A stretch of 64,000 nt of DNA from Planctomycetota bacterium (lineage in GTDB: Bacteria > Planctomycetota > UBA11346): positions 1-64,000 of the forward strand of contig JBBRLJ010000019.1 of NCBI GenBank assembly GCA_038231435.1. Direction: 5' to 3'. The position numbers and the translations under genes are program-made. Of the stretch, positions 13,099 through 44,508 are shown piece after piece. The notes beneath the pieces were generated by a model that was not told where the DNA came from, searched no databases, and saw only the letters and a list, made by a program, of their open reading frames with translations. Positions within the stretch are counted from its first letter, which is position 1. Every line of letters starts with the position of its first letter.

Positions 13099-13099
13099 G

Positions 13100-17759: not shown

Positions 17760-18091
17760 GGCGTGGCTATCGACGCCAGCGCCGCCAGCAGGTGCTCCAT
17801 CCGAGATCCGGCGCCACCAGAGTCGCCTGATGGAGAAGCCCATGCGGGTTCGGATGGCGACTCGCTCGAGGCGGGGGGCGCGGAAGCGATCAGCACTTCC
17901 GCTGGGTGCACCAGCACGCACGCGCTCAAGCACCTCGTGAGCCTGCACATCAGGCCCGCCGTGGTACGTCGCCCGGACGCGGGAAGCCGCGCGAGGTCGC
18001 GATCGGGAAGCACATCTCGATGCTGGACCGGGTGCATGAGTGGCTCCGGGATGCTCCTGGAACCCGAGGGCTTCCCATGGAACTACGGTTA

Positions 18092-18116
18092 TGTATATCA
18101 ATACTGATGCATATCA
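18092..18116. promoter_or_regulatory. Putative operator (shared palindrome)
   Basis: TGTATATCA-ATAC-TGATGCATA, in an AT-rich patch between the divergent zinc-ribbon and kinase genes. Confidence 0.65.
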
Positions 18117-18420
18117 AGTATACGGAAGCTCCTCAAGCGATTTCCATCGCGGTTTGTGCGCTTACCGGCGTCGGCGTGCTACCCGCCCGGACTCACGCCC
18201 ACGGTGCGAGCGCACCACAATCCAGCATCAACCTGGCTGGGCTTCCTCGGCCGGTGGACGCCGTCGATGCGCAATGGCATTCGCGTCCGGCAACCCGGTC
18301 AGGCGGGGGGACGCAGCCCGGACAGAGGCACACGCACCAGTGCCAGCGACCCTGTCTTTCTTGTCGGGCAAATGGACCAGAGACATCCACCGGCTATCGT
18401 CCCACCATGGTCACGCGCGC

Positions 18421-21400
18421 ATGAGCGATCCGGCAGCCGAGCTGAAGAAGAAGTACCGCCGCACGGTCGCCGCGAAGTCCTTCTCCGCCGCCGGCGTGCG
18501 CGAGGCGGACGAGGAAGCGAACAACGCACAGCCCTCCACCGACCAGCCCCAGCTGAACGGTTCCAGCGCCACCGTTCGCCTGCGCCGGGTCGGCAGCACC
18601 ACGGTCGGCGGCCAACGCTTCCGCATCGATGAAGCCCTGGGCGTCGGCACCACCGGCGAAGTCTACTCGGTGTTCGATCGCAACCTCGAGCGCCTGGTGG
18701 CGGTCAAGGTGCTGCGGCGCACGCTGGTCGACAACGAGGACGAACTCAAGGCGTTCGTCAACGAAGCTCGACTCACCGCCTCGTTGTCGCACCCGAACGT
18801 CCTGCCGGTCCACGAGTTCGACGTCACCCACGATGGCCAGCCCTACTTCAGCATGAGCAGGATTGCCGGCGAATCGCTGGGCAGCATCCTCGAGAAATCC
18901 ACCCTGGATTTCCGCCACGCCGTTGTCGGCAACTTCAATGCGCTCGTCGGCATCATGATCGGCGTGGGCAACGCGCTCGCCTACGCCCACCACCAAGGCG
19001 TCGTCCATCAGGACGTCAAGCCAGACAACATCATGGTCGGTGAATTCGGCGAGGTGTTGCTGCTCGATTGGGGCAGCGCGGTGCGTGCCGGACTCGACGG
19101 CACGGTGACCAACCGCATCTACGGCACTCCCCTCTACATGAGCCCCGAGCAGGCCAGGCGCGACCATGTCGACGCGCGCAGCGACGTGTACTGCCTCGGC
19201 GCGACCTTCTTCCATGCGCTGACGCTCAGGTTGCCAGTGTGGGATGACGATCCCGACCGCTTCTGGGAGATGAAGCGCGACGGCGAGATCCAGCCGCCGA
19301 CCGAGGAGGAGCAGGAGAAGATCCCGGCGCAGCTGCTCGGCATCGCGCTCAAGGCGATGGCTCCGTCCCCAGAAAACCGCTATTCCAGCGCCAAGGAATT
19401 CATCGCCGACCTCAAGGATTGGCAGGCCGGGCTGGCGGTCAGCGCCTACCGGGATTCCATCGGCGTCAGGTTGCGGCGCTGGCACCGCCGCAACGCCAAG
19501 ATCATCTGGCCGGCGGCGATCATCGCGGGCATGGCGATCGGCTTCTCGCTGTATCTGCACGCGGAGCGGCTCAAGGAGCTCGCGGAATGGGGCGCGCCGA
19601 TCGTCACCGAAACATTCAGCGACGATTCCTGGCAATCACGTTGGACGCCGATGGATCCGGGGACCTTCGCCACTCAGGACGGTAAATTGGTGACCAAGGG
19701 CGAACGCGCGTCGTTCCTGGTCTACAACAAGCGCCTCAGCGGCAGCGTCGCCATGGAGTTCGACGGCGTGATGCCGCTCGACACCAGGCCGTGCGATCTC
19801 TCGGCGGTGTGGTGCGAAGGCAACGTCTTCGAGACGGCGGGGCCGAAATTCAACGGTCGCACCTACTTCCTGCAGACCGGCGCCCGCGACAACATCGTGG
19901 CGATGATACTCGAACCGAAAGACGCGCGCCAACTCTCGCTCAAGCGCCTGCACCTGGTCCCCGGCCAGTCCTACCACATCCGCGTCGTCATCGACGGGCT
20001 GCACATGGAGCTGCAGGTCGATGGCCAGACGCTCTGCAGCTACGATGACGTGTTCCCGTTCACCTCGGGCTACCTCGCGCTCTACGGCTATTACCCCGGC
20101 AAACTTTTCGACAACGTGAGGATCTACAACCGCGGTGTGCCACAGAAGATCTCGGTGCTCGCGATCGGCGACAGTCTCTACCAGATGGGGCTCTTCGATG
20201 CCGCGATGACGCACTACCAGCGAGTGATCGATTCGCACGGCGGCACCGAGCTCGCCGACGCGGCACTGTTTCGCATCGGCCTCTGCCAGCTCGTGCAAGG
20301 ACGGTGGAGCCAGGCCCGCGCGAGCTGGGAGGGCGTCCGCGACCCGGCGCTCAAGCTGCAGGTGCAGATCCACGACATGGATCACCTCTTCGACACGCGC
20401 ACGTTCACCGAGCTGGCGAACAGCTTCTCGGACGCTTACGAGCATCACCCCGAATTGCGTTCCGACCTACGCAGTCATTGGCGTTCCTGGGTCAAGGATC
20501 TCAATTTCGATCCGCCCGAATCCCTGCTGCCGCTCCTCCAACTCGAGGACGGGCATTTCCCGGCAGAAGAGGACTCCGTCACCTCCACCTTCAACATCCT
20601 GGATCGGCTCGGCCGCTGGGATGAGGCGGCGAAGCGTTTCGGGCAGGATCCCCAGGTCGGTCCATGGGCCCTGCTGGCCCTCGACCGCTACGAGGAGATG
20701 AACAAGAATTTCGCGGATTACCCCCTATCTCCGTGCACCGCGCAGATCGAGCGAGGCGAATACGATCTCGCACTCCCTGCCTCGCGGCAGTACGACTGGA
20801 TGCGCAAGGAATTGCTGCTGAGCACCGGTCGCTTCGAGGAGTACGCCAGTGAATTCGGCACCGATCCGAAACTCCTGGTGATGACCGGGCGCGCCCAGGA
20901 GGCGTTCGAGTTGCCAAACCCGCTCCCGAACTTCTCGGTGGAGAACGGAGAACGCGCGATCGCCCTGATGCAACTGGGCAAGCGCGAAGCCGCGCTCGCC
21001 TATGCCGAGGGACATCCGAAGGATTCCTGGAGCGACGACGATCGCGCGCGCGTTCTGGTGTATCTCGGCCGAGGCGCCGAGGCGGTACCGCTCGCCCGCG
21101 AGCTGCAGGCCAGGCACGTGGCGACCACCGGTGCCGCGCTCGATGCGGCGATCGCCGGCGATCTCGAACTCGCGCATCGTCGGGCGCAGGATGCCGCGAG
21201 AGTGCCCTTGTCGCTCTCCTTTCCGCACGGCTGGTTCGAACACTACGTGGTCCTGCCCGCGCTCGATTCCGGCAAGCTGACCGACGTCGCGCCCGCGCTG
21301 GCCGCTGTGGTCAAGTCTGGCCGCTACGAGCATCACCAACGCCCGTGGTATTTCGCGCGACTGGTCGCTGGCGAGGCGTCCGACGAGGAATACCTGAAGC

Positions 21401-21639
21401 AGCCGTTCCTTCCGGATGCGAAGGGCACGCTGCTCCTCGGCCATGCCCTTCGCCACGATCTGGCAAACGAGACCGAAGCGGCGCTGGCCGATTACCGTGC
21501 CTACCTCGCGCTGCCCATGGACCAACGCGGCGTCGACGCGGTGAACGGGCTCGGCGATCCGCTGATGGAGCGTTTCTGCATCTGGCGCCTCGCGGTGCTG
21601 GCTCCGGCTCCGGCTCCGGCACCTCCTCCTGCCCCCTAG
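18421..21639 (+). CDS. Hanks-type Ser/Thr protein kinase with TM, beta-sandwich (DUF1080/LamG-like) and TPR-like regions
   Basis: LGVGTTGEVY, VAVK, HPNV, HQDVKPDN, LLDWG, GTPLYMSPEQ, SDVYCLG. TM IIWPAAIIAGMAIGFSLYL, then a beta-rich domain (YHIRVVIDG...GYLALY...FDNVRIY) and helical repeats. Start MSDPAAE at 18421. Confidence 0.9.
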   Translation: MSDPAAELKKKYRRTVAAKSFSAAGVREADEEANNAQPSTDQPQLNGSSATVRLRRVGSTTVGGQRFRIDEALGVGTTGEVYSVFDRNLERLVAVKVLRRTLVDNEDELKAFVNEARLTASLSHPNVLPVHEFDVTHDGQPYFSMSRIAGESLGSILEKSTLDFRHAVVGNFNALVGIMIGVGNALAYAHHQGVVHQDVKPDNIMVGEFGEVLLLDWGSAVRAGLDGTVTNRIYGTPLYMSPEQARRDHVDARSDVYCLGATFFHALTLRLPVWDDDPDRFWEMKRDGEIQPPTEEEQEKIPAQLLGIALKAMAPSPENRYSSAKEFIADLKDWQAGLAVSAYRDSIGVRLRRWHRRNAKIIWPAAIIAGMAIGFSLYLHAERLKELAEWGAPIVTETFSDDSWQSRWTPMDPGTFATQDGKLVTKGERASFLVYNKRLSGSVAMEFDGVMPLDTRPCDLSAVWCEGNVFETAGPKFNGRTYFLQTGARDNIVAMILEPKDARQLSLKRLHLVPGQSYHIRVVIDGLHMELQVDGQTLCSYDDVFPFTSGYLALYGYYPGKLFDNVRIYNRGVPQKISVLAIGDSLYQMGLFDAAMTHYQRVIDSHGGTELADAALFRIGLCQLVQGRWSQARASWEGVRDPALKLQVQIHDMDHLFDTRTFTELANSFSDAYEHHPELRSDLRSHWRSWVKDLNFDPPESLLPLLQLEDGHFPAEEDSVTSTFNILDRLGRWDEAAKRFGQDPQVGPWALLALDRYEEMNKNFADYPLSPCTAQIERGEYDLALPASRQYDWMRKELLLSTGRFEEYASEFGTDPKLLVMTGRAQEAFELPNPLPNFSVENGERAIALMQLGKREAALAYAEGHPKDSWSDDDRARVLVYLGRGAEAVPLARELQARHVATTGAALDAAIAGDLELAHRRAQDAARVPLSLSFPHGWFEHYVVLPALDSGKLTDVAPALAAVVKSGRYEHHQRPWYFARLVAGEASDEEYLKQPFLPDAKGTLLLGHALRHDLANETEAALADYRAYLALPMDQRGVDAVNGLGDPLMERFCIWRLAVLAPAPAPAPPPAP

Positions 21640-22885: not shown

Positions 22886-22994
22886 GATCGATGCCGGAGC
22901 CCAGCGCCGCGGCGTGGGTTTCGTCATCGTGCCACGACCGTAGCCCCGACACGAGCCCCTTCGTCCGATGACGCGCGCCCGCGCAGGAGTCCGC

Positions 22995-25604
22995 ATGACC
23001 CGGTTGACCTTCCATCTGATCGCCAACGCCCATCTGGATCCGGTCTGGCTGTGGGACTGGCGGGAAGGCATGAACGAAGGCATCGCCACCTGCAAGGCGA
23101 TGCTCGATCTGATGGATGAGTATCCAGAGTTCACCTTCGTGCGCGGCGAGGCGGCCATCTACCGCCATATCGAGGAGCATGATCCGAAGATGTTCCGCCG
23201 CATCGAAAAGCGTGTGGCGCAAGGCCGATGGGACGTGGTCGGCGGCACCTGGATCCAGGCCGACACCAACCTGCCATCGACCGAAACCTTCGTGCGCCAG
23301 TACCTGCACGGCCAGGACTACCTCGCCAAGCGCTTCGGCAAGCCGGTGCGGGTCGCATGGGCGGCGGATTCCTTCGGCCACGCCGCGGGGCTTCCCGACG
23401 TGATGGCCGGCGCGGGCATCACCGGCTTCGCCTTCACCCGCCCCGACGAGCGCGTCGTGCCGTTGCCCCTGCCGGCGTTCTGGTGGGAGGGCTGCGGAGG
23501 CTCGCGCGTGCTGTCCTACCGACCGATGTCCGGATGGTACGGCAGCGAGCGCCATGAGGTCGGGCCGAAGCTCGACCGCCTGCTCGAGGCGGCCTCCAAG
23601 CAGCCGCTGACCCAGGTCGGCTTCTTCTATGGCCTCGGCAACCATGGCGGCGGCGCGAGCCGGCGCCATCTCGACGAGATCCGCGATTGGCAGCGACGCC
23701 ACCCCGAGGTCGAGGTCGTGCATTCGGGCCTGCATCGCTTGCTCGCGGCGGTCGCCGACGACGCGCGCAAACAGCGCATCGAGTTGCCCGTGCACCGTGG
23801 CGAGCTGAATTTCTGCCTGCGCGGCTGTTACGCTTCCGTCGCCAAGTTCAAATGGCCGTTCCGACGCGCCGAAGCGCTGCTGCAGGCGAGCGAGACGCTC
23901 GACGCCCTCGCCTCGACCAGGATCGCGGCCAAACCCGCGGATCTCGACGCCGAATGGGAGGGCGTGCTGTTCGGCTCGTTCCACGACATCCTGCCTGGTT
24001 CGTCCATCGAACGCGCCTACGACGATCAGCTCGCCTGGCTCGGCGCGGTCACCCACCGCTGCCAGCGCCTCGACCTCGCGTCGATGAACGTCCTGGCCTC
24101 GCGCATCGACATCGATGTGCCGTCGGTCACCGGCGACCACCCCAGCGCGATCCCCTTCCTGGTGTGGAATCCGCAGCCGCGACCGTTCGTCGGACACATC
24201 GAGCTCGAGGGCAGTCTCGATTACCGCCCGATCTGGCCGTACTCCGACAAGGTCGACCAGCTCCCGGTCGAAGTGCGCAGCGCCGATGGTACGGTGGTGG
24301 CGCACCAGGTGGTCTCGACCGAGCACCGCTCGATGGTGAACCTCGCTTGGCGCAAGCGCGTGGTGGTGCCTGTGCGCCTGCCCGCGCTCGGCTGGCAGGT
24401 GATGACCATGGGCTGGGTGGAAGGCGCGAAGAATCCGACGCTTCCCGATCCGGTTTCCGCGCCCGACGCCACCACCATCGACAACGGTGTCTACCGCGTC
24501 AGCGCCGCAAAGGGCGCCAAGGGCGTGTCGATCTCGAAGGACGGCAAACCCGTGTTCGGAGAGCCCGGATTGGGCGCCGTCGTGGTCGACGACCCCTGGG
24601 GTTCATGGGGCGGCATGGGCGAGGAGCCGGCATCGGTAGAGCTCACCAGTGTGCGCGAGCAATGGACGGTAGCCGCCGTGGAACTGCGCGAGCGCGGCCC
24701 CGAGCGCGCGTGTCTGTGGGTGCGCCTCGCTGGAGCGTCCTCGCGCATCGACCTGTCCATCATGCTGTACCGCGGCCGCGCCGCGGTGGACATCGGCGTG
24801 CGCGTGTTCTGGGCCGAGCGCAGCGCGCGCCTGCGCCTGACCATGCCCGGAGCCGAGTCCGCGGAATACCAGGTACCTGGCGGCAGCGCGACGCGCGGCG
24901 CCGTGGGCGAGGTGCCGGGCCTGCGCTGGGCGAAGGTCAGCGGACCTGGCCGCAGCTTCGGCTTCGTCAGCGACGCGCTGTCGAGCTTCGGGGTTTGGAA
25001 CCAGGTGTTCAGCGCGACAGTGGTGCGCGCCTCGCGCTACGCCGACGACGTGTCCACCGCGCCCGACGCGGTGCCGTGGGTGCCCTCGGTGGACTGCGGA
25101 GAGCTCATGTGCCGGCTGCTCATCGCGCCGGCCGACGACGACCTGCCTCGTCTGGCCGATGAGCTCGCGCAGCCGCCGCGGGTGCAGCACGTGCCGGCGC
25201 GGACCGCGCGTTCGGCCGATCTCGAGACCTCGGGATCATTCGCCGAGCTGCGCCCGCGCGGACTGGCGCTGCTCGCGCTGAAACCGGCGCGCGAAGGCGA
25301 TGGCCTGGTGCTGCGCGTGCTCGAGACCTCGGGGAAGCCCGCGAAGGCGTCGCTGACGTTGTTCGGCGCGGCGCTCGCGCTCGGCACGGTGGCCGCGCGC
25401 GGCATCGCCTCGTGGCGGCTGCTCCGCCGCGGTTCGCGTTGGAGCTGCGTCGCCTGCGATTCTCTCGAACGCCCTCTCGGCGCCCGATCGGGGTCGGCGG
25501 CACGCTCGGCGAAAGCGGTTGGTGGCTCGGCGCCGAAGCCGAAGCGCCTCCGGAAGGCGGTGGCGAGGAAGACCCCGGCGCGGCGGAAGGGCGCTCGACG
25601 CTGA
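22995..25604 (+). CDS. Alpha-mannosidase, glycoside hydrolase family 38
   Basis: HLIANAHLDPVWLW, VGGTWIQAD, WAADSFGH, FWWEG, YGLGNHGGG, FHDILPGSSI. AGGAG RBS; no signal peptide. Confidence 0.92.
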   Translation: MTRLTFHLIANAHLDPVWLWDWREGMNEGIATCKAMLDLMDEYPEFTFVRGEAAIYRHIEEHDPKMFRRIEKRVAQGRWDVVGGTWIQADTNLPSTETFVRQYLHGQDYLAKRFGKPVRVAWAADSFGHAAGLPDVMAGAGITGFAFTRPDERVVPLPLPAFWWEGCGGSRVLSYRPMSGWYGSERHEVGPKLDRLLEAASKQPLTQVGFFYGLGNHGGGASRRHLDEIRDWQRRHPEVEVVHSGLHRLLAAVADDARKQRIELPVHRGELNFCLRGCYASVAKFKWPFRRAEALLQASETLDALASTRIAAKPADLDAEWEGVLFGSFHDILPGSSIERAYDDQLAWLGAVTHRCQRLDLASMNVLASRIDIDVPSVTGDHPSAIPFLVWNPQPRPFVGHIELEGSLDYRPIWPYSDKVDQLPVEVRSADGTVVAHQVVSTEHRSMVNLAWRKRVVVPVRLPALGWQVMTMGWVEGAKNPTLPDPVSAPDATTIDNGVYRVSAAKGAKGVSISKDGKPVFGEPGLGAVVVDDPWGSWGGMGEEPASVELTSVREQWTVAAVELRERGPERACLWVRLAGASSRIDLSIMLYRGRAAVDIGVRVFWAERSARLRLTMPGAESAEYQVPGGSATRGAVGEVPGLRWAKVSGPGRSFGFVSDALSSFGVWNQVFSATVVRASRYADDVSTAPDAVPWVPSVDCGELMCRLLIAPADDDLPRLADELAQPPRVQHVPARTARSADLETSGSFAELRPRGLALLALKPAREGDGLVLRVLETSGKPAKASLTLFGAALALGTVAARGIASWRLLRRGSRWSCVACDSLERPLGARSGSAARSAKAVGGSAPKPKRLRKAVARKTPARRKGARR

Positions 25605-25730: not shown

Positions 25731-25805
25731 ATCGAAGACATGCTCCCGGCCGGTGACGCAGACACCCGGTCGCCGCGAGGCGGTCAACGCACGTCACAGC
25801 AATGA

Positions 25806-25827
25806 TGTATATCAGTTATGATATACA
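25806..25827. promoter_or_regulatory. Putative operator, perfect copy of the shared palindrome
   Basis: TGTATATCA-GTTA-TGATATACA, ~30 bp upstream of the 25859 start. Confidence 0.72.
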
Positions 25828-25858
25828 GATGTCACACCGCATGCACGGGAGGAACGGC

Positions 25859-26533
25859 ATGAGCCACCAACGCGCAGATAGCGGCTGGTCAGATGCCTTT
25901 CAGGATCGGGCCGAGGGCACCGTGACCCTCACCCCACCGGGAGGCGCGGCACGGCGACGCGCCCCGCTCGAGGCGGCGCGCGTCGAGGCCACCACTCCCA
26001 CGCCGCTGACCGCCTCGATCGTCCTCCGCTCCGATCTTGTGCCGCTGTCCGCGAGCGAGGCACCGCGCGCCGCCGACCTGGCGATCATCGAGCGGCTTCC
26101 AGGCATGCCGACGCCAGCGCCTGCGACGTATGCCACTGCCGAGGCCGCGTCCGCGATCGCGCTCCTGGCGGCGAGCGTCGGAGCGGTCGCCATCATGTTC
26201 CCGATCCTGCCCGGCAGCATCGACGCGGCCTCGGGAGTCGCCATCGCCGCGTTTGCGGTCGCAACCGTGGTCGACCGCCGCGTCCTGAGCTCGGCCCGGC
26301 CGCTCGACGTCATCGCCGCCGCCATCGCCCTGTCGTTCATGGGCTTGACGCTGTCAATCGCGACCGGAGTGGCTGGCGCGCTCTTCCCGCTCAGCGCGCT
26401 CTACCTGGCCGCCGGCTCGCTGGTGGCCGGAATGTCGTGCGTCGGCGCCTGGAACGAGCGACGCCCCCTGCTGATGCGCGTCATCGGCGGTTCGATGTTC
26501 CTCCTCGGCCTCCACGTCATGCAGGGCTCCTGA
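25859..26533 (+). CDS. Hypothetical multi-pass membrane protein
   Basis: GGAGG RBS before MSHQRAD; soluble N-terminus followed by about 5 hydrophobic segments. Confidence 0.65.
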   Translation: MSHQRADSGWSDAFQDRAEGTVTLTPPGGAARRRAPLEAARVEATTPTPLTASIVLRSDLVPLSASEAPRAADLAIIERLPGMPTPAPATYATAEAASAIALLAASVGAVAIMFPILPGSIDAASGVAIAAFAVATVVDRRVLSSARPLDVIAAAIALSFMGLTLSIATGVAGALFPLSALYLAAGSLVAGMSCVGAWNERRPLLMRVIGGSMFLLGLHVMQGS

Positions 26534-26602: not shown

Positions 26603-27370
26603 ATGGCGATTTCCTTCTGGGGCTTGATGAGCGACGCGGTGATGTCCGCGAGCTGGCTCGAACTCGGCGTCCTGCTCATCCTGCTGGCGATGTCCGTCAT
26701 CAGTTGGGCGGTGATCATCATGAAGATCGCGCTGCTGCGCCGGGCGCGGGCGAACAATGAGCATTTCCGCGTAGCCTTCGAGACCTACGACCATACCGGC
26801 CAGGTCGCCGAGGAGGGCCGCAAGGACGAGGCCGGGCCGGCGCCCTTGTACGCCATATTCACCGCCGCCATCGCCTCGCGCCAGGATGCGCGCGAAGACG
26901 CCAAGTCGATGATGCCGGTGCCGAACGGCGAGTTCCCGCTGCGCAGCCCGCGCCAGCTCGCCGAACGCGTACGACTGGCCATGGACCACGCCCGTCGCGC
27001 CGAGTTCACCCGCCTGAGCAAGCATCTCAACGTGCTCGCATCCGCCGGCAGCGCTTCGCCGTTCATCGGCCTGTTCGGCACGGTGTGGGGCATCCTCGCC
27101 ACCTTTCAGACGCTCGGCGCGGCCAAGAGCGCGAGCCTGCAGGCGCTCGGCCCGCCCATCGCTGCGGCGCTGATAGCCACCGCCGCCGGTCTGGCGGTCG
27201 CGATCCCCGCAGTGATGGCGTACAACTGGTTCGTTGGGCGCATCGACGAGGAGCAGGAGGAAGCGCAGTGCTTCGAGGAGGACCTCGCCCGCCTGCTGCG
27301 CGCCAACGGCGCGATGAACGAGCCGGGGTCGTCTGCCCAGACCAGTCAACCCCTAGCCAAGTCGGCGTGA
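26603..27370 (+). CDS. MotA/TolQ/ExbB proton channel family protein
   Basis: LLAMSVISWAVI, SASPFIGLFGTVWGI, IAAALIATAAGLAVAIPAVMAYN. Confidence 0.93.
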   Translation: MAISFWGLMSDAVMSASWLELGVLLILLAMSVISWAVIIMKIALLRRARANNEHFRVAFETYDHTGQVAEEGRKDEAGPAPLYAIFTAAIASRQDAREDAKSMMPVPNGEFPLRSPRQLAERVRLAMDHARRAEFTRLSKHLNVLASAGSASPFIGLFGTVWGILATFQTLGAAKSASLQALGPPIAAALIATAAGLAVAIPAVMAYNWFVGRIDEEQEEAQCFEEDLARLLRANGAMNEPGSSAQTSQPLAKSA

Positions 27371-27377
27371 GGCTCCC

Positions 27378-27836
27378 ATGGCGATGAACACAGGCAGCAC
27401 GCGCGGTACCAAGCGCCGGGTCATGGCCGAGATCAACGTCACGCCCATGGTCGATGTGATGCTGGTGCTGCTGATCATCTTCATGATCACCGCGCCAGCG
27501 CTCAAGGAAGGCTTCCAGGTCGACCTGCCGCACGCGTCGTCGACGCAGACCATCCGGCTCGAGGACTCGGTACGCATCACCATCGCCGCCGATGGCAAGG
27601 TCATGCGCGACCAGAGCGGCGGGGCCGAGAAGAGCTACGATCACCTCGCCGAACTGGTCGCCGAACTGAAGGAGTACCGCGCCGAGCGCGAGCGCGCCAA
27701 CAGCGACGCCACGGTGGTGATCAACGGCGATGGCAAGGCCACCTACGAGCGCGTGGTGCAGGTGTGGGACGCGGTACGCACCGCGGGTGTCAGCCAGGTC
27801 TCCTTCCAGGTCGAGCCGGGCGCCGCGCCCAAATGA
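27378..27836 (+). CDS. ExbD/TolR family protein
   Basis: AEINVTPMVDVMLVLLIIFMITAP (conserved Asp), VDLP, INGDGKATYERVV. Confidence 0.93.
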   Translation: MAMNTGSTRGTKRRVMAEINVTPMVDVMLVLLIIFMITAPALKEGFQVDLPHASSTQTIRLEDSVRITIAADGKVMRDQSGGAEKSYDHLAELVAELKEYRAERERANSDATVVINGDGKATYERVVQVWDAVRTAGVSQVSFQVEPGAAPK

Positions 27837-27885
27837 CGCCCCGGGCCGGATGTCCGGCCATGTTCCACCCAGCCCGAGGATTCCG

Positions 27886-30800
27886 ATGGACAACGCCCCC
27901 GCTTCCGCCGCGACCGACTCTTCCTCCTCACGGACGGATGCGTCCTCTGCGACAGCTGCGACAGCTCCGACCGCCTCGTTTCAGCCGCGTCGCGGGATCC
28001 CGGTGAAGCCGGCGCAGCCATGGAGCTCTATGAGGAGCTCGGCGATCCTGCGACGGTTCGTCGCCTATTCGATCTTCGCGCATGTCGGCGCGGCGGCGAT
28101 CTGGGGATTGCCCTCGTGGCTGGCGCACCATGCCGAGCACGCCCGCGCGGCCGAACAGCAGCGACTCGCCGAGCATTTCCGCGCCGAGGAGGTGAAGTCC
28201 AAGGAGCACGCTCGAGAGAGCCGCATCGCCAAGACCAGGAACGAGGTGCGTGAGGAGATGCGCAAGGATCTCGGAAAGCTGGTGAGCGGCCTGCCCGAGA
28301 AGAGCCGCGACGAGCTCTTCACCCGCGTCGAGGACAAGACCGCCAAGCAGGCCAGCCAACTCGCCGAGGCGCTCGGCGATCCCGAGACCCCCGAGCAGAA
28401 CCTGCGCAACCTCGAGACCGAGCTGCGGCGCGACATGGTCGCCGAGCTCGACCACGAACTGACCGCCGGCGGCGCGCGCGAGCTCGCCGATCAGTTCCTC
28501 GACAACGTCGACTCCCAAGTCGCGCCCGATCTCGCGGCCTGGATGCGTTCCGAGATCGACGCCACCGTCGCGGCGAAGATGAAGGACGAGGCAGCGGCCT
28601 TGATCCAACAGCAACGCGAAGGCGCGGCAAAAGCCCGCGACGAGGCCACTGCGCAGTTGCGGGAGGCGATCACCAAGGGCTCGGCGGCGGCCGAGGCGAT
28701 CAAGGGCGGCGGCGACAAGGCCGCTCAAGCCGAGCAGGATCTCGCCGCGGCCGATGCGGCGATGCTGAAGGCCGAGTCCGCAGCTGCGGCCCTCGGTTCA
28801 TCTGCAGAGAAGGCCGTCGGCGCCGCCGAAGCGGCGCTGAGCCAGGCGCATGCCGCCGTCGCGCGGGCCGGGGCCGCGGCCCACTCGGCACAGAATACAT
28901 CCGGCGACGCCGCGGCCGCTGCGGCAGCCGCGGCCGATTCCAGCACGGCCTTCGTCAAGGAAGCGCAGAAGGCGCGCGACGCGGTGGCGGGGGACGCGGG
29001 CGCGGACCGCGCGGCGGCCGCCGCCGCAGCGCTGCGCAGCGCGGAAGCTGGCTTGCGCGCGGGAGTCGAGAAGGCCTTCGCCGACGACCTCGCAGCGACC
29101 ACGCTGCCGCGCCTGGAAAAGGAGCTGAAGACGGCATTCGCCAAGGAGCTCGCGGACGACGGCCTCGGCGACGACGCCTTCGCTGGCGAGATCGCGCATG
29201 AAGCGGCCAAGCGCCTCGAGAAGAGCGTGCCCGCGCTGGCCAAGGTCGGCGATGGCGTCCAGGCGCGTCTCGACGAAGCCGCTCACAAGCCGGCCGGAGA
29301 CGCCGGCGCTGCCGCGGCATCGGCCGCCACAGCGGATGGCGCACCCGGAGCGGCCGGAACCAAGGACGCCCAGAGCGCCGAAGGCGCCGCGGGAGCGCAG
29401 GGCGGCAGATCGGGCGGCGGCAAGGCGAGGTCCGCCTCGGCGGGAGGAGACAAGCCCCAGTCCAAACCAGCCTCTGGACAAAAAGCAGCACTCGATCAAG
29501 CGCTCGCCGCCGGCATCGGCGCGATCGGATCGCATGCCGCCTCCGGCGTCGGCGCGGTCGCTGGCAACGCGCGCGAGGATGCCCGCATGGTCGCGCGCGC
29601 CGGCGGCAAGGACGGGAAAGGCGCTGGCGCGGCGGCGGCGCTCGCGGACATGCACGATCGCGTGGCTGCCGTCGCGCGCAGCATGAAGAATGGGCGCATG
29701 GGTTCCGCTGGCGGCGGCACCGGCATCGGCGGCCTACGACAAGGCGCGGTCGCGCGCGGCGGCGGCCACCGCGATGAGCAGGCCTACAAGGATATCTCCG
29801 GGAAGATCGCTGGACGCGAGACCGTCCAAGGCGAGCACTGGGCCCAGCAGGGCGCGCAGGGCGAGACCGCGCACGCCGAAGCCATCTCTGGCCGCCCCGT
29901 GCCTGCGCGCGTGGTCGGCTCACCCGAGCCGTCGGCCGGCTCGTTGGCGCTGGTCAACGCGGAACCCTACAAACCGACGTTCAAGAGCATCGCCTTCATC
30001 TCGGTCCCCGCTGTCGAGGGGAATTTCAAGGTTGACGGCGATCTCGGCAAATGGCAGGGCATTCCCGCGGTCGCACTGACTCCCGAAGGTGCCGAGGACA
30101 AGTCACCGCAAAGCATGCGCGTGGCGTGGTCCAGCGCCGGCGTGTTCCTGCTCTTCACCATCGCCGACCCCGACCACCAGCTCGGCAAGTCCGAGGCGAG
30201 CAACTTCTGGGACGCCGATGTCGCCGAAATCTGGATCGATGCCTACAACACCAAGGAGAACCACCGCGCCCGCCACTCGGGCCAGCAGTTCTGGATCTGG
30301 CCGCAGGGATCAGCCAGCGATCCAGATCTCACCGGCGGCGAATCGGTGATGCTCAAGGACGGCAGCTACACGCCCACGGCGGTGCGCGCCGACAAGCTCG
30401 AACGCTGGGCCACCATGACCCCCGCCGGTTGGACGCTCGAGGCACGCATCCCCGCCGCGTCGATCGCTGACGCCGATCTCGCTCCGGGCAGGATCCTCGG
30501 CTTCAACGCCTACATCACCACCAAGACCCAGACCTGCTGGTACTGGTCCGCTGGCAAGAAGGTCAGCACCCAGTCGCAACCCGACACCTGGGGCGATCTC
30601 CTGCTCGCCGGTTCCGACGCCAAGCTCACCATTGGCGACGGCACCGATCCCAGCAAGACGACAGCCGTGGTCGGCGAGCCGGTGCGCATCACCGTCACTG
30701 ATGGCGACATGAACCTCGACCCCGCGGCGCGCGACAAGGTGATGGTCACGGTGAAGGACGGTCACGGCGGACAACAGATCGCGGTGCTCGAGGAGACCGC

Positions 30801-31011
30801 CGCCGCCAGCGGAATCTTCGAGGGTTCCGTGAGCACGGCGCTGGCGCTCGACGAGCCGCTTCCCGGCGCGCTCGGCGTGTACGAGGGCGAGCGGGTGGAC
30901 GTGGTCTACATCGATCAGGCCCGCGCCAATGGCGCACGCGACGCAGAAGTCAGGGCCTCCGTCGCCTTCGCCTCAGCGGTGACCGCCAAGGCTGGCCGCG
31001 CCGACCGGTGA
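27886..31011 (+). CDS. TolA/TonB-like energy-transducer with CBM9-like (DOMON) sugar-binding and Ig-like C-terminal domains
   Basis: N-terminal TM with S-x3-H (YSIFAHV) and a long Ala/Glu/Lys helical stalk. Then KVDGDLGKW...RVAWS..GVFL...WDADVAEIWID...GWTLEARIP...ILGFN (CBM9-like) and VTDGDMNLDP...LEETAAASGIFEG. Start 27886 (GAGG RBS) or 27850. Confidence 0.7.
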   Translation: MDNAPASAATDSSSSRTDASSATAATAPTASFQPRRGIPVKPAQPWSSMRSSAILRRFVAYSIFAHVGAAAIWGLPSWLAHHAEHARAAEQQRLAEHFRAEEVKSKEHARESRIAKTRNEVREEMRKDLGKLVSGLPEKSRDELFTRVEDKTAKQASQLAEALGDPETPEQNLRNLETELRRDMVAELDHELTAGGARELADQFLDNVDSQVAPDLAAWMRSEIDATVAAKMKDEAAALIQQQREGAAKARDEATAQLREAITKGSAAAEAIKGGGDKAAQAEQDLAAADAAMLKAESAAAALGSSAEKAVGAAEAALSQAHAAVARAGAAAHSAQNTSGDAAAAAAAAADSSTAFVKEAQKARDAVAGDAGADRAAAAAAALRSAEAGLRAGVEKAFADDLAATTLPRLEKELKTAFAKELADDGLGDDAFAGEIAHEAAKRLEKSVPALAKVGDGVQARLDEAAHKPAGDAGAAAASAATADGAPGAAGTKDAQSAEGAAGAQGGRSGGGKARSASAGGDKPQSKPASGQKAALDQALAAGIGAIGSHAASGVGAVAGNAREDARMVARAGGKDGKGAGAAAALADMHDRVAAVARSMKNGRMGSAGGGTGIGGLRQGAVARGGGHRDEQAYKDISGKIAGRETVQGEHWAQQGAQGETAHAEAISGRPVPARVVGSPEPSAGSLALVNAEPYKPTFKSIAFISVPAVEGNFKVDGDLGKWQGIPAVALTPEGAEDKSPQSMRVAWSSAGVFLLFTIADPDHQLGKSEASNFWDADVAEIWIDAYNTKENHRARHSGQQFWIWPQGSASDPDLTGGESVMLKDGSYTPTAVRADKLERWATMTPAGWTLEARIPAASIADADLAPGRILGFNAYITTKTQTCWYWSAGKKVSTQSQPDTWGDLLLAGSDAKLTIGDGTDPSKTTAVVGEPVRITVTDGDMNLDPAARDKVMVTVKDGHGGQQIAVLEETAAASGIFEGSVSTALALDEPLPGALGVYEGERVDVVYIDQARANGARDAEVRASVAFASAVTAKAGRADR

Positions 31012-33991: not shown

Positions 33992-35782
33992 CTACCGGGT
34001 TCCGTCCGCCGGGGATGGCGGAACATCGTCGAGCACCGGTTCGGCGAGCCCCGCGAGCGGCTGACGTCCGGAAGCCTCGAGGTCGAACACCACCACCTCG
34101 TTGCGCCCGACGCGCAGCCAGGCGCCTGGCAGATAGGCGGTCTGCTGCGGGCCGATCGACCAGAAACGGCTGAGGCAATGTCCGTTGACCCACACCACGC
34201 CGCGTTTCCAGCTGCGCAGGTCGAGGAAGGTGTCGCCGACGCGCTCGAGCGTGAACCAACCGCGGTGGAACGCCGGTCCCGGGCGATCGCCGGATTGCCA
34301 GCGCAAGCGGCCGAGCATCGCGGCATCGAGCGGCAGCGGAAACGCCTGCCAGCCCATCAGGGTCAGGCCGCCGTATTCCACGCGCTCGGTGATGCCTTTG
34401 CGATCGAGCAGCTTGTGGCCGAAATTCACCCGCCCGGTGGTATCGACCAGCACATCGAGCCGCGCGCGTCCAGCGGATACTCCGACGAGCTTCACCGAAG
34501 TCTCGTGCTTGCGGCGATCCAGGGTGCCGGCGAGGCGGCCGTCGACATAGATCTTGGCGTAGTCGTGCGGCTCGACGATGCGCAGGTCGCCATCGCCGAG
34601 GCCGCCGATGTCGGTGCGGTAGAGGATCATGCCGTAGGACTGGCCGAGGGATTCCATCGGCACCGGCTGCGGCACCGCGATCGGCGCGGGCAGATCATCC
34701 CACAACGAGGCCGACTCGGTCAGCTCGAAACGCGGCACCGCCACTACCGGCTGCGCGGGCCGCGGCACCTGGGGCAGCGTCGTGCCGGCGGGCTGATGCA
34801 GTGCCAGGAGCTCGCGCAGCGCGTGGTATTTCGCGGTCGGTCGGCCGGCCTCGTCGAGCGGCGCGCGGTAGTCGTAGCTGCTCACGGTGGGCGTGTACTG
34901 CTCGTACTCGTTGGCCCCGGCCATGAGTCCGAACGAGGTCCCGCCATGGAACATGTAGAAATTGAACGAGGTGTCGTTCGCGAGCATCCAGCTGACCTCG
35001 GCCACTACCGGCGCGGGATCGTCGCTGCCGTTGCGCTTCGCGCCCCAGGCGTCGAACCAGCCCGCCCAGAACTCGCCGCACATGGCCGGCTGGCTGGGCC
35101 GCAGCCGCCGGAGTTCGGGGATCTGCTCGTGCGCGCGGCTGCCGAAATTGGCCACCGTCACCGCGCCCGCGACTTCGCCGGCCTTGAGCGCCTGCGGCTG
35201 CGCCCAATCGCAGGTGTACAGCCGGCCATCGAAGCCCGCCTCCTTGACCAATGCGACCATCGCGTCCATGTAGGCGCGATCATTGCCGAATGCGCCGTAC
35301 TCGTTCTCGACCTGGACCATGACCACCGGTCCACCGCGATGCCATTGCAGCGCCGCGCATTCGCTTCCCACACGCATCAGGTAGCGGCGCACGGCCGCGA
35401 GCCAGCGCGGGTCGGCGCAGCGCACCTTGATGTCGCGGGTCGCCAGCAGCCACGCCGGCAGCCCACCGAACTCCCATTCGGCGCAGATGTACGGCCCCGG
35501 TCGCAGGATCACCGCCAGACCTTCCTCGTGCGCCAGCTTCAGGAATGCGGCCACATCGAGCATGCCCGCGAAGTCGAAGATCCCCGGCGAGGGCTCGTGC
35601 AGGTTCCACGGCATGTAGGTGCTGACGGTATTCAAGCCCATGGCGCGGGCGCACTGCAGGCGGTGCCGCCAGTACTCGCGCGGAATGCGGAAGTAGTGCA
35701 TCTCGCCCGAGAAGATTCGGAACGGCGCACCATCGAGCAGGAAGTCGGACGTACCCACGGTGAAACTGCGCGTTGTTGGCAT
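33992..35782 (-). CDS. Beta-galactosidase, glycoside hydrolase family 35
   Basis: SGEMHYFRIP, YMPWNLHEP, LRPGPYICAEW, QVENEYG, EFWAGWFDAWG, NFYMFHGGTSFG, SYDYRAP. Start MPTTRSF. Confidence 0.95.
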   Translation of the reverse strand: MPTTRSFTVGTSDFLLDGAPFRIFSGEMHYFRIPREYWRHRLQCARAMGLNTVSTYMPWNLHEPSPGIFDFAGMLDVAAFLKLAHEEGLAVILRPGPYICAEWEFGGLPAWLLATRDIKVRCADPRWLAAVRRYLMRVGSECAALQWHRGGPVVMVQVENEYGAFGNDRAYMDAMVALVKEAGFDGRLYTCDWAQPQALKAGEVAGAVTVANFGSRAHEQIPELRRLRPSQPAMCGEFWAGWFDAWGAKRNGSDDPAPVVAEVSWMLANDTSFNFYMFHGGTSFGLMAGANEYEQYTPTVSSYDYRAPLDEAGRPTAKYHALRELLALHQPAGTTLPQVPRPAQPVVAVPRFELTESASLWDDLPAPIAVPQPVPMESLGQSYGMILYRTDIGGLGDGDLRIVEPHDYAKIYVDGRLAGTLDRRKHETSVKLVGVSAGRARLDVLVDTTGRVNFGHKLLDRKGITERVEYGGLTLMGWQAFPLPLDAAMLGRLRWQSGDRPGPAFHRGWFTLERVGDTFLDLRSWKRGVVWVNGHCLSRFWSIGPQQTAYLPGAWLRVGRNEVVVFDLEASGRQPLAGLAEPVLDDVPPSPADGTR

Positions 35783-35876
35783 GGCGGGATGATCAATCCG
35801 GTGGGCGGCTCCGCAAGCCGGCCGGAAGCCCGCAGACTGGCGCCGCTGTCGGCTGTAACATAGGGTATCCTCTGAT

Positions 35877-38800
35877 ATGGCGGGCACCTCGGACCAGCAC
35901 AGGCCTGCAGCGCGGATCTCCGAGTTCCGTCGCACCATGCGCGAGAGCGGCAACGCGCCTCCGTCTGAAGCTCCGCGCGTCTTTCCCGGCGAGACTCCTG
36001 GAAAGGCTTCCTCAGTCAGCCCGAACCATGCGAGCGCGCCTTCGGATGCAAAGTCCGAGACCAGCCCGCTCGGCCAGCCGACGATCGCAGAAGGCGCCAA
36101 GACCGAGTTCGTGTCGCAGCGTCGCACGCTGGACGAGACGGCGAAGCGCTACGATATCGACAGGCTGCTCGGAACCGGCGCCAGCGGCCAGGTCTACGCG
36201 GCCATGGACCAGGACCTGCAGCGCTCGATCGCGATCAAGGTGCTGGTGGGAGCCGAGGCAGGCGACGTCGACCAGTTCGTCGAGGAGGCGCGCATCACCG
36301 CGCTGCTGCAGCATCCGAACGTGCTGCCGATCTACGACATCGAGGTGAACAAGCGCGGCCAGACCTATTTCACCATGAAGAAGATCGAGGGCGGCTCGCT
36401 GGGCTCCGCAGTCGATCGCTCCACCAGCGAGGCGCGCGCCGACGAGATCGCGAGCATCAACGCCATCGTCAGCCTGTTCATCAACGTCGGCTACGCGCTC
36501 TCGTTCGCGCACTTCCACGGCATCGTCCACCAGGACATCAAGCCCGACAACATCATGCTCGGGAAGTTCGGCGAGACCTTGCTGGTGGATTGGGGCAGCG
36601 CCGTGAGATCGAAGTCCTCGTCCCGCGGCATCTATGGCACCCCGCTGTACATGAGCCCCGAGCAGGCGCGGCGCGAATACGCGGATTTCCGCAGCGACAT
36701 CTACTGCCTCGGAGCCAGCCTCTTCCATGTGCTGACGCTCAGGCTGCCGACCTGGGACGACGACCCGAAGGTCTTCTGGGAAAAGAAGAAGCGCGGCACC
36801 ATCGATCTCCTGAGCGGCGGTGAACGGAAACGAGTGTCGACGCCGCTCTTGGCGATCGCGGTCAAGGCGATGGCCGCCGACCCGAAGGACCGCTACCAGT
36901 CTATCGACGGGATGGTCGAGGATCTCAAGCGTTTCCAGGGCGGACTCGCGATCACCGCGTTGCGCGACACCGTGTTCGATATGCTCAAGCGCGGCTACCG
37001 CCGCAACAAGCGCGCGGTGCTGGCGTCCGCGGCTGCGCTGGCGGTGGTGCTGTCGCTGGGCGTCTACCTCTACGGCGAACGCCTCAAGGAGGTCGCGACC
37101 TGGGGAAGCCCGGTGATGCGTGAAGATTTCGCCGACGACTCATGGAAGACCTCGTGGAGGGTCATCGAGGGTTCGTTCGAGCGTCGCGACGGCATGCTCG
37201 TCGGTCTCGGGCAGGACGGGAACCGTCTGATGTACCCCAAAAAGGTTTTCGGCGACGTCGCGGTGGAATACGACGGCGAGATCCTCCCCGATTCCCACCC
37301 CTGCGACCTGTCTTTGACCTGGTTCCGCGATCTGGTCGAGACCGCCGATCCGGGGCATCCGAATCGTCTCGATGAGTGGAACGTCCAATTCGGCGCGTAT
37401 GACGGATCGTACACCGCCATCCTGCGTGAAGAGACCGGCAGTACCCGTCACCTCGCCTACAGCGATCTTCGTCCCGAGGTCGGCAGGCTCTACCACGTCC
37501 GCGTCGAGATCGCGGATGCGACCATCACCCTGGCGGTCGACGGCAAGCAGATCTGCCGCTATGTGCACACCGAGCCGCTCACTGGAGGTTACCTCGCCTT
37601 GTACGGTTACTATCCAGGCAAGGCCTTCGGTCACCTGCGCATCTACTCGCGCGGTGTTCCGCAGAAGGTCGCGACCACCGCCATCGGCGACGCCTTTCTG
37701 CAGAAGGGCGAGTTCGCGAACGCCGAGGAGGCCTTCGCCAAGGTGGTCTCCTCGCAGCCCGGAACCGCGCTGGCGGACGAGGCGGCGTACAAGCAGGGTT
37801 TCTGCAGATTCCGTTCAGGTCACCGCGATCAGGCCTTCGAGCTGTGGCGGGGCCTCGAGACATCGGCACGCTGGGGCGAGCTGATCGAGCTGCACCGCCT
37901 CGAAAACCTGTACCAGCAAGGCAGGCACGACGAGATGCTGCATGGGATGGAGGCGCTGTTCGCGGGATCCCGGGATCCCGAGACCCGGCCGCGCCTGGGC
38001 ATGCAGTGGTGCAACGACACCTACGACCTCATCGAACGCGCCGACGATGCGACGCTCGCCAAGTACCTCGCGTTCCACGACCGCGTCATCTCGGGCGAAC
38101 GCGCCACCGATCGCACCGCGGCCGATGCGCTGCTCGAGCTCGGCAGGTTCCAGGAGGTCCTCGACCGCTACCCTCGACAGGAGCGCGCCGGCGCGCTCGC
38201 GCTGGTCTACCAGGGACATTCCGAGGCTGTTCCGACGCGCTTCCCGACCCAACGGCCGCTGGTGAGATGGGCGCTGTGGGAATCGGGGCGGAGTTCGGAG
38301 CTCAAGGCATTCCTTGGCGACGTGCCGGAAAGCGCCCTGGCCGACGGACGAATCGCGCGTGGCGAGTTCGCGGACTACCTGACCGGCCCCGGAGCCAAGC
38401 CGATGGCACTGTTCGCGGCGGGTAGGCCCGAGGTGGTCCTTGCGACCCAGCCGGACGACAGCTTCCTGCGCAACCAGTCGCTGATGTTCATGGATCAGAC
38501 CGATCGCATCCCCGAGGCGGACGCCACCAAGGATGGGATGGTGCTGATGGAGCTCGGACGTCTGGATGAGGCGCGCAAGCTCATGGAGATCGGCGACGGC
38601 GGCGGGATCCTTCCGCGCATGCTCATGGGCCTCGAAGCCTATATCAGGGGCGACAAGGCCGCGGCCTGGCCCCTGATGGCGGTGCCCGCGAAGATGGAAT
38701 TCCAGCAGCCATCAACCGCGCGCGCCCACTTTCTGCTGACGCCATTCCTGGCCGAACTGGATGGCAGAGTGGATGCAATGAAGGCCAGCCGTGACCATCT

Positions 38801-39080
38801 CGCCGAGCACCGCTTCTGCTTCGAGCAGCATCCGTGGCACCAGATCCGCTATGTCCTCGGCGAGATCGATGCCAAGGCCTTCCTGGAGCAGCCGCACCGG
38901 ATCTTCGCACCGGCCCAGCTGACGTTATGCGATGCGCTCCGGCTGGAGCGCGCGGGCGACCGCGCCAGCGCGCTCGAGAAGTATCTCGCCTATCAGCGGA
39001 TCCCGAAATCGATGCGCTCCTACGTCTCGGATCCCTTCGGCGAACGCTTCGTGCGCTGGAGGATCGATCAGCTGCGCTGA
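35877..39080 (+). CDS. Hanks-type Ser/Thr protein kinase, paralog of 18421..21639
   Basis: LGTGASGQVY, IAIK, HQDIKPDN, LVDWG, GTPLYMSPEQ, a TM segment, GYLALYGYYPGK and TPR-like repeats. Confidence 0.9.
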   Translation: MAGTSDQHRPAARISEFRRTMRESGNAPPSEAPRVFPGETPGKASSVSPNHASAPSDAKSETSPLGQPTIAEGAKTEFVSQRRTLDETAKRYDIDRLLGTGASGQVYAAMDQDLQRSIAIKVLVGAEAGDVDQFVEEARITALLQHPNVLPIYDIEVNKRGQTYFTMKKIEGGSLGSAVDRSTSEARADEIASINAIVSLFINVGYALSFAHFHGIVHQDIKPDNIMLGKFGETLLVDWGSAVRSKSSSRGIYGTPLYMSPEQARREYADFRSDIYCLGASLFHVLTLRLPTWDDDPKVFWEKKKRGTIDLLSGGERKRVSTPLLAIAVKAMAADPKDRYQSIDGMVEDLKRFQGGLAITALRDTVFDMLKRGYRRNKRAVLASAAALAVVLSLGVYLYGERLKEVATWGSPVMREDFADDSWKTSWRVIEGSFERRDGMLVGLGQDGNRLMYPKKVFGDVAVEYDGEILPDSHPCDLSLTWFRDLVETADPGHPNRLDEWNVQFGAYDGSYTAILREETGSTRHLAYSDLRPEVGRLYHVRVEIADATITLAVDGKQICRYVHTEPLTGGYLALYGYYPGKAFGHLRIYSRGVPQKVATTAIGDAFLQKGEFANAEEAFAKVVSSQPGTALADEAAYKQGFCRFRSGHRDQAFELWRGLETSARWGELIELHRLENLYQQGRHDEMLHGMEALFAGSRDPETRPRLGMQWCNDTYDLIERADDATLAKYLAFHDRVISGERATDRTAADALLELGRFQEVLDRYPRQERAGALALVYQGHSEAVPTRFPTQRPLVRWALWESGRSSELKAFLGDVPESALADGRIARGEFADYLTGPGAKPMALFAAGRPEVVLATQPDDSFLRNQSLMFMDQTDRIPEADATKDGMVLMELGRLDEARKLMEIGDGGGILPRMLMGLEAYIRGDKAAAWPLMAVPAKMEFQQPSTARAHFLLTPFLAELDGRVDAMKASRDHLAEHRFCFEQHPWHQIRYVLGEIDAKAFLEQPHRIFAPAQLTLCDALRLERAGDRASALEKYLAYQRIPKSMRSYVSDPFGERFVRWRIDQLR

Positions 39081-44494: not shown

Positions 44495-44508
44495 GCTGGG
44501 GCTCCTGC

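Follow-up and report, generated by a model that had tools for sequence, protein, structure and literature searches.

The DNA analyzed here, a stretch of 64,000 nucleotides from a contig of a Planctomycetota bacterium (JBBRLJ010000019.1, referred to as C19; the entire stretch is termed the window), harbors a tight unit of three genes on the + strand (26603-27370, 27378-27836 and 27886-31011). These genes encode the two subunits of a TolQ/TolR-type motor and a protein of 1041 aa, designated X (P0001), which, as far as can be deduced from sequence, very likely serves as a force transducer coupled to the motor and equipped with a new head. On balance, the interpretation is slightly favored that the motor and an arm docked to it via Ser62 and His66 carry force to a C-terminal head composed of a CBM9-fold and an immunoglobulin-like (Ig-like) domain, and that the partner held by this head is likely a glycan or a molecule bearing one. 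Motors of the TolQ5R2 type turn proton flow into movement, as is established for the family. In the system proposed here, proton flow would drive this movement, X would dock at the rim of the motor via Ser62, His66 and Trp73, a mostly helical periplasmic arm of about 600 residues would pass the movement on, and the head would engage its putative ligand in the outer periplasm or at the outer membrane.

The three genes are separated by gaps of 7 nt (first/second gene) and 49 nt (second/third gene). The first (26603..27370, +) encodes the motor stator subunit of the MotA/ExbB/TolQ family (255 aa; Pfam PF01618, MotA_ExbB, E 2.4e-34), and the second (27378..27836, +) encodes the motor axle subunit of the ExbD/TolR family (152 aa; PF02472, ExbD, E 1.9e-30). 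A preliminary description of this DNA had proposed an ExbB/ExbD-type motor, whereas the NCBIfam models place both subunits closer to TolQ and TolR. The best match of the stator was TolQ (TIGR02796) with 185 bits (cut-off 221), compared with 106.8 bits for exbB (TIGR02797), and the axle matched TolR best (TIGR02801; 120.3 bits, cut-off 127.3), with the ExbD models reaching 50.6-73.1 bits. Judged by these scores, the motor is nearer to TolQ/TolR than to ExbB/ExbD, although both values lie below the curated cut-offs. Moreover, the residues required in this motor family are, according to the aligned sequences, intact: the transmembrane Asp26 of the TolR-like axle, invariant in 20/20 aligned orthologues, and, in the stator, Ser and Trp in the first transmembrane helix (TM1; S-V-I-S-W), Thr in TM2 (within GLFGTVWG) as well as Thr and Pro in TM3 (within IATAAGLAVAIPAV).

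The third gene (27886..31011, +) encodes the complete TolA/TonB-like transducer X with its CBM9 and Ig-like head. Its start codon ATG at 27886 is preceded by a Shine-Dalgarno-like GAGGA 6 nt upstream, and an alternative ATG is located at 27850. Within the three deduced proteins, Pfam matched MotA_ExbB, ExbD and CBM9_1 and no other domain. The upstream gene at 25802-26533, encoding a membrane protein of 243 aa, showed no match to Pfam or NCBIfam and was rejected as a member of the operon in view of its lack of conservation at other loci.

X starts with a predicted cytoplasmic tail (residues 1-54; 27886..28047, +) which has a high content of Ser, Ala and Pro and for which the AlphaFold2 model shows disorder (predicted local distance difference test, pLDDT, <50). 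It is followed by a transmembrane helix (residues 55-78; 28048..28119, +) of the sequence LRRFVAYSIFAHVGAAAIWGLPSW, which contains Ser62-x3-His66, Trp73 at position His+7 and Ser77 at His+11. Because a cluster of Arg and Lys residues directly precedes the helix, the protein is predicted to be oriented with its N-terminus inside and its C-terminus outside the inner membrane. In an alignment of 32 X sequences, comprising P0001 and 31 of 37 homologue matches (six partial or weak ones were omitted), S62 and H66 were invariant in 32/32 sequences at 24-51% identity, which is far beyond chance. Besides Met1, these were the sole invariant columns across residues 1-425. The homologues found ranged from 24 to 68% identity. 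Furthermore, S-x3-H was located inside a hydrophobic helix in 40 of the 42 GTDB loci having the N-terminus on the contig, with L054 and L056 as exceptions. According to the review PMC12905483, Ser and His of this motif form the hub contacting TM1 of ExbB/TolQ in cryo-EM structures, and His+7, corresponding to the 'L' of SHLS, is placed together with them against TM1. The helix motif noticed in the preliminary description is thus present and conserved throughout the alignment.

In order to evaluate the linkage of X to motor genes, a pattern-based scan of 185,579 species genomes was conducted, yielding 50 loci from other genomes. The order found in the window, exbB-exbD-X (type A), was recorded in 22/50 loci, and the order X-exbB-exbD (type B), whose heads are about 25-30% identical, in 16/50. 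In two loci (L054 and L060) no motor gene was present although both flanks extended over at least 1.5 kb, and ten loci were uninformative because of contig ends. Accordingly, X adjoins exbB/exbD in 38 of 40 informative loci, in two gene orders and across several lineages of the Planctomycetes-Verrucomicrobia-Chlamydiae (PVC) group. When all open reading frames (ORFs) of 52 loci were clustered, conservation was confined to X, exbB (in 39 loci) and exbD (in 37); other ORF clusters occurring in more than five of the 52 loci were all shadow ORFs of these three genes. No outer-membrane channel, glycoside hydrolase (GH) or other gene was conserved beside the trio in these loci.

Co-variation between arm and motor was counted over the 33 loci having both X and a motor gene. 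In the 17 loci whose motor TM1 carries Trp, position His+7 of X is Trp (14) or Tyr (3), whereas in all 16 loci with TM1 lacking Trp or being gapped, it is Leu, Ile, Val or Thr (16/16). His+7 is Trp in type A and Leu, Ile or Val in type B, and L032 is the lone type-A locus having lost both the TM1 Trp and the His+7 aromatic residue. This is the pattern predicted by a direct helix-helix contact; since the sequences are related, it represents few evolutionary events rather than 33 independent ones. Coupling of the arm to the motor, as claimed at the outset, is hence well supported by comparative evidence. The opposite assumption, that X is a membrane-anchored periplasmic carbohydrate-binding protein merely neighboring the motor without functional coupling, appears extremely improbable: it could draw on L054 and L060, which lack a motor gene in their flanks, and on the other CBM9 proteins of the window's genome, which are ordinary secreted proteins, but it is opposed by the linkage in 38/40 informative loci, by the invariant Ser and His of the X helix and by the co-variation of this helix with motor TM1.

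As a side observation, five X-like genes without adjacent motor genes were found in one metagenome-assembled genome (MAG) of a member of the Planctomycetaceae (L054, L059, L061), three of them being arranged in tandem in L059. Some of these motor-less copies have lost the helix Ser, e.g., LLLCGAGLHAAL. These genes may represent orphan or decaying paralogues.

The membrane helix is followed by a periplasmic stalk (residues 79-689; 28120..29952, +), as delimited by composition as well as secondary structure and pLDDT of the AlphaFold2 model. In agreement with the preliminary description, which had noted an Ala-rich stalk of about 600 aa, residues 79-700 comprise 26.5% Ala, 11% Gly and 2-4% Pro, with Pro contents of 0.6-4.4% in individual segments. 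The full-length model (mean pLDDT 77) is almost wholly helical over residues 52-467, with long helices at residues 52-132, 170-273 and 339-424 among others (pLDDT 80-94), the membrane helix continuing unbroken to residue 132. Shorter helices follow at residues 535-640, and disordered linkers were predicted for residues 471-532 (rich in Gly, Ala and Ser) and 650-685. In the homologues, S-x3-H and PDTWGD, the motif closing the CBM9 domain, lie between about 550 and 1390 residues apart. An ESM Atlas search with residues 40-420 of the stalk region gave no usable match, and NCBIfam contained no model matching X or its type-B paralogue.

Since it is helical, Ala-rich and Pro-poor, the stalk resembles TolA rather than TonB. 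X and TolA further share the order tolQ-tolR-transducer, the Ser-x3-His helix, a long alpha-helical region (domain II in TolA) and motor proteins closest to TolQ and TolR. They differ at His+7, which is Trp in X and Leu in TolA, and at the C-terminus, where TolA carries domain III binding TolB. TonB likewise has in common with X the Ser-x3-His helix, the linkage to motors of the ExbB/ExbD family and the predicted topology, but it possesses a Pro-rich spacer and a TonB_C domain (PF03544) and binds the TonB box of TonB-dependent transporters. No match of X to TonB_C, TonB_2 or TolA_C was obtained by Pfam at E <= 0.1, as had been expected from the initial inspection of the sequence.

The C-terminal head (residues 690-1041) was modeled using a 42-sequence alignment, resulting in two beta domains with a pLDDT of 93 and a predicted TM-score (pTM) of 0.89. 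The first is a beta-sandwich of the CBM9 (DOMON-like) fold at about residues 703-909 (29992..30612, +), as evidenced by Pfam, profile-versus-PDB comparison, Foldseek and VIA-align. CBM9_1 (PF06452) was the sole Pfam match of X at E <= 0.1 (E 2.1e-10, 41.3 bits, cut-off 23.4, residues 742-909). Superposition by VIA-align on 1i82_A, the CBM9-2 module of Thermotoga maritima Xyn10A (TmCBM9-2), gave a Z of 21.4 and a root-mean-square deviation of 2.3 Å over 179/189 residues at 21% identity, and the head family profile matched this PDB entry with E 4.5e-15. Foldseek retrieved 1i82 and 7nwo with TM-scores of 0.75-0.78 on the target, and a second carbohydrate-binding module, 4jpq, was matched in VIA-align (Z 19.5). 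Haem-binding DOMON-like subunits scored lower (2ivf_C, Z 13.6; 7b04_C, Z 12.5), so that a haem-binding DOMON domain was rejected as the principal assignment in view of Z values of 12.5-13.6 versus 21.4 and 19.5 for the carbohydrate-binding modules.

The second domain is an Ig-like beta-sandwich at about residues 910-1030 (30613..30975, +) featuring the motifs D-x-D-M-N-L, L-E-E-T, G-x-F-E-G and Y-x-D, the first three of which correspond to the pattern given for the Ig-like module in the preliminary description. Taken alone, this domain had no Pfam match at E <= 1; its structural matches in VIA-align were Ig-like (Z 8-9). Its homologue in the surface-layer (S-layer) protein of Nitrosopumilus maritimus spans residues 1518-1595 (8c8k, E 2.2e-10), and this protein also matched both head domains together in VIA-align with Z 15.6. 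Moreover, giant proteins of up to 7799 aa (P0039-P0055) contain between 6 and 48 copies of the Ig-like domain in tandem. Neither a TonB_C- nor a TolA-type fold was among the 50 VIA-align matches and the Foldseek matches listed for the head. In all three respects in which the first description could have failed, the result was in its favor: the C-terminus folds as CBM9 and Ig-like domains, Ser and His of the helix are conserved, and X is linked to exbB/exbD in other genomes.

Regarding sugar binding, the ligand of TmCBM9-2 is reported to be clamped by Trp71 and Trp175 and to receive hydrogen bonds from Gln96 and Asn172, and CBM9 modules bind the ends of glycan chains with a preference for reducing ends (PMC8280721). 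These positions were mapped on X via profile alignment to 1i82, and residues were counted on the 42-row head alignment (26 type-A and 16 type-B rows). The equivalent of Trp71, W775, is aromatic in 41/42 rows, that of Glu77, E781, is Glu in 42/42, and that of Gln96, Q801, is Gln in 38/42. The position of Trp175 is aromatic in all 16 type-B rows. The head thus shares its fold and the equivalents of Trp71, Glu77 and Gln96 with characterized CBM9 modules (TmCBM9-2, 1i82; CkCBM9.3, 7nwo), from which it differs in being mounted on a motor-coupled inner-membrane anchor, the known CBM9 being part of a secreted xylanase.

Several observations weigh against the favored interpretation. In the window's X, the Trp175 equivalent according to the sequence alignment is Gln896, so that the second aromatic residue of the clamp is absent, and across type A this position is aromatic in 13/26 rows only. 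Since Gln896 replaces the clamp residue, the case for glycan binding is weaker for the window's member; for the X family, glycan binding is plausible in view of the conserved positions. The original proposal that the arm grips glycan consequently finds a clear CBM9 fold but an incomplete sugar clamp. Furthermore, haem-binding subunits share the CBM9/DOMON fold as well, and the head could instead bind protein. The model of X lacks a beta-strand 'motor box', an element reported in 93% of TolA proteins (PMC12204202) and likewise distinguishing X from the transducers headed by a vWA domain described in that study. The GH38, GH35 and GH29 genes near the operon are not conserved at other loci and, finally, all 50 loci originate from MAGs.

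An alternative addressing the nature of the ligand is that the head binds a protein, e.g., an S-layer-like or outer-membrane protein, and that the system moves or tensions a surface layer in the manner of gliding or adhesion machines. The homology of the Ig-like domain to the N. maritimus S-layer domain (E 2.2e-10; Z 15.6 for both head domains), its repetition up to 48 times in giant proteins and the incomplete type-A sugar clamp would fit such a role, and a part in gliding or in contacts between proteins has been suggested for the vWA-headed transducers (PMC12204202). This alternative is nevertheless regarded as very doubtful, given that no candidate partner gene is conserved nearby and that, for the larger head domain, genuine carbohydrate-binding modules are the nearest solved structures (Z 21.4 and 19.5 vs. 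13.6).

The distribution of the family was evaluated next to its architecture. According to their labels, the 50 loci derive mostly from Planctomycetota (Tepidisphaerales, Phycisphaerae, Brocadiia, Planctomycetaceae), the remainder comprising three Verrucomicrobia, two Lentisphaerae, one Kiritimatiellia, one bin labeled as Anaerolineales and five unlabeled MAGs. In a survey of Planctomycetota genomes (each at least 80% complete, six candidates scored per genome), a head-profile match at E <= 1e-20 was obtained in 19 of 301 sampled genomes, and within the window's own family in 7/16. Searching the head profile against 1.84 billion cluster representatives yielded 615 proteins at E <= 1e-30. Among the 138 with new identifiers that were examined from the best 150 of these 615 matches, 63 carry the head at the C-terminal end as in X, and in 44 of these 63 the Ser/His helix is likewise present, at most 150 residues from the N-terminus, the other 19 being mostly short fragments. 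The terminal motif is absent from 75/138, mostly giant many-repeat proteins.

This patchy spread, unlike that of TolA, fits poorly with a housekeeping role, which is of relevance for another explanation, namely that the system serves Tol-like envelope maintenance: in bacteria devoid of Pal and TolB, the outer membrane or the cell wall would be tethered or remodeled by motor and helical arm, and the head, bound to peptidoglycan or to a component of the outer membrane, would take over the part of TolB-Pal. The TolQ and TolR scores of 185 and 120.3 bits, well over those of ExbB/ExbD, point in this direction, as do the gene order tolQ-tolR-X and the long, helical, Pro-poor domain II, which resembles that of gamma-proteobacterial TolA as described in PMC12204202. 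Moreover, the supplement of that paper states that Witwinowski et al. showed Planctomycetes without pal. Tol-Pal systems comprise tolB, pal and cpoB; on C19, no match to a Plug domain, TolB or Pal was found, in agreement with the initial claim that the window holds neither tolB, pal nor a TonB-dependent receptor, and cpoB was neither located beside the operon nor detected in the genome. Genome-wide, TolB_N gave 0 matches, and the best matches to Pal_lipo (42.8 bits, cut-off 125.35) and to the TolB propeller (23 bits, cut-off 343.15) stayed under their cut-offs; since the genome (5.2 Mb) is 87.64% complete, absence of TolB and Pal from it is not proven. Besides this limit, the spread over only 19/301 genomes of the phylum and 7/16 of the family, TolQ/TolR scores below the curated cut-offs and the presence of two paralogous systems within one genome speak against Tol-like maintenance, so that it appears unlikely. 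In this context, the tol-pal locus of Hallerella succinigenes was noticed to be flanked by a CBM9 gene (supplement of PMC12204202), which may be a member of the X family beside a true Tol-Pal system. In that case, the range of the family would include Fibrobacterota, and arm and TolA might use one motor in common.

The second of the two paralogous systems is an intact type-B set, X-exbB-exbD, on contig C3 (L072:4572-9326, with exbB at L072:8024-8914). Its X comprises 1120 aa, contains the helix motif SFMLH and matches CBM9_1 with E 1.9e-10. Upstream of this set, a secreted DUF5060/Big_9 protein of 799 aa with a Gly-rich C-terminal anchor is encoded.

The genome furthermore encodes canonical Ton components elsewhere, including two TonB_C proteins and three Plug-domain receptors, and contains six MotA_ExbB genes in total. 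All three Plug-domain genes reside on contigs other than that of the operon, so that no receptor gene is linked to it, in contrast to Ton systems. In an apparent canonical Ton cluster on the - strand of contig C4 (L073:4066-8786), two MotA_ExbB matches are accompanied by genes for an ExbD and a TPR protein; one of the two TonB_C proteins adjoins exbB/exbD genes on this contig (TonB_C match at C4:95411-95635). The suggestion that X stands in for TonB is not sustained by this gene complement. On contig C47 (L075:3279-5732, - strand), exbB is followed by two different exbD-like genes, and the contig ends before any transducer gene; this layout resembles the tolQ and paired tolR genes of PVC vWA transducers (Williams-Jones et al., PMC12204202).

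Concerning its physiological role, the leading guess is that the X system acts in polysaccharide handling in or at the periplasm, i.e., capture, retention or pulling of chain ends, as an accessory beside an ordinary Ton system. This guess relies on the carriers being glycan degraders and on the window's GH38, GH35 and GH29 genes together with its LacI/GntR regulators and sugar ABC transporter, none of which is conserved beside the trio.

A more far-reaching variant is receptor-independent uptake driven by the proton-motive force, in which the arm would grip a polysaccharide chain and reel it in through the outer membrane to the periplasm. Planctomycetes were reported to import dextran of 10-40 kDa to the periplasm, a process sensitive to the protonophore CCCP (PMC5394234), and such uptake would also be compatible with the binding of chain ends by CBM9 modules (PMC8280721), the abundance of glycoside hydrolases in the organism and the retention of both clamp aromatics in 16/16 type-B rows. 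This variant is distinctly unlikely when set against the lack of a conserved outer-membrane channel or partner gene beside the trio, the missing second clamp aromatic in the window's X, and the restriction of the family to 19/301 sampled genomes of the phylum. Moreover, none of the 50 loci from the pattern-based scan is labeled as Planctopirus or Gemmata, the genera with dextran uptake shown in PMC5394234. The initial designation of the system as an uptake machine is accordingly not borne out, as neither a channel, a glycoside hydrolase nor any other gene accompanies the trio consistently. In its most specific form, the idea amounts to a proton-powered 'glycan winch', whose motor would pull CBM9-held chain ends via the very long helical arm and thereby drag or ratchet whole polymers into the enlarged PVC periplasm without a TonB-dependent receptor; we consider this very unlikely. 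If true, it would provide a molecular handle on energy-dependent 'selfish' polysaccharide uptake in the carrier lineages.

Among known systems, the proposed motor-coupled arm most resembles the motor-driven force transducers with a vWA head that Williams-Jones et al. (2025, Mol Biol Evol, PMC12204202) described from PVC and other bacteria. As described there, these proteins, like X, possess a single N-terminal helix with a Ser/His motor-binding motif, adjoin tolQ/tolR-like genes, end in a globular C-terminal domain that is neither TonB nor TolA, and are found in Planctomycetes and Verrucomicrobia. Differences concern the head, which is vWA in these transducers and CBM9 plus Ig-like in X; the linker, which comprises about 100 Pro-rich or disordered residues in contrast to 550-1390 helical residues in the X family; and the operon, since vWA systems feature a heterologous tolR pair and a TPR partner, whereas the X operon has one tolR-like gene and no conserved TPR gene.

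To our knowledge, TonB and TolA were for a long time the only known carriers of proton-motive force to the outer envelope. The vWA head, described in 2025, represents a third type, to which the X family would add a fourth, combining the fold of a carbohydrate-binding module with an S-layer-type Ig domain. Also unusual about the X system are the great length of its helical arm, the motors dedicated to it and the occurrence of two gene orders. Should glycan prove to be the ligand of the head, a motor of the TolQR/ExbBD type would for the first time be found to act directly on carbohydrate instead of a protein plug or lipoprotein. The carriers (Planctomycetota, Verrucomicrobiota, Lentisphaerota, Kiritimatiellia) possess unusual envelopes and play a large role in polysaccharide turnover, and the family is of relevance for work on Ton/Tol motors and on PVC envelopes. 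Due to its co-varying Trp/Trp and Leu/aliphatic pairs, it also constitutes a natural test bed for the coupling between Ser/His helix and motor. In the published literature outside subscription journals, no description of a CBM9-headed motor-coupled arm was found. The text of PMC12204202 and its searched supplementary file do not name such a family, the terms 'CBM', 'sugar' and 'sandwich' being absent from the main text, and a 2026 review (PMC12905483) does not mention 'CBM', 'carbohydrate' or 'vWA'.

The surroundings of the operon in the window are rich in genes related to glycan utilization. A GH38 alpha-mannosidase is encoded at 22968-25604 (+), a GH35 beta-galactosidase at 33992-36127 (-) and a GH29 alpha-L-fucosidase at 43064-44722 (-), and a sugar ABC transporter composed of a solute-binding protein and two permeases is located at 10182-14773 (+). 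Regulators of the GntR, LacI and AraC families are also present. The glycan-related genes are flanked by genes for two large Ser/Thr protein kinases whose C-terminal regions contain TPRs (18040-21639 and 35877-39080, both +), and a related kinase recurs in 4/52 of the compared loci. Near the start of the window (1294-6149, - strand), a 1408-aa ORF without a Pfam match lies beside a gene whose product of 454 aa carries a prepilin-type N-terminal methylation motif (PF07963). Among the sequencing runs listed for this genome, none was of RNA, and the seven DNA runs all represent sediment or soil metagenomes.

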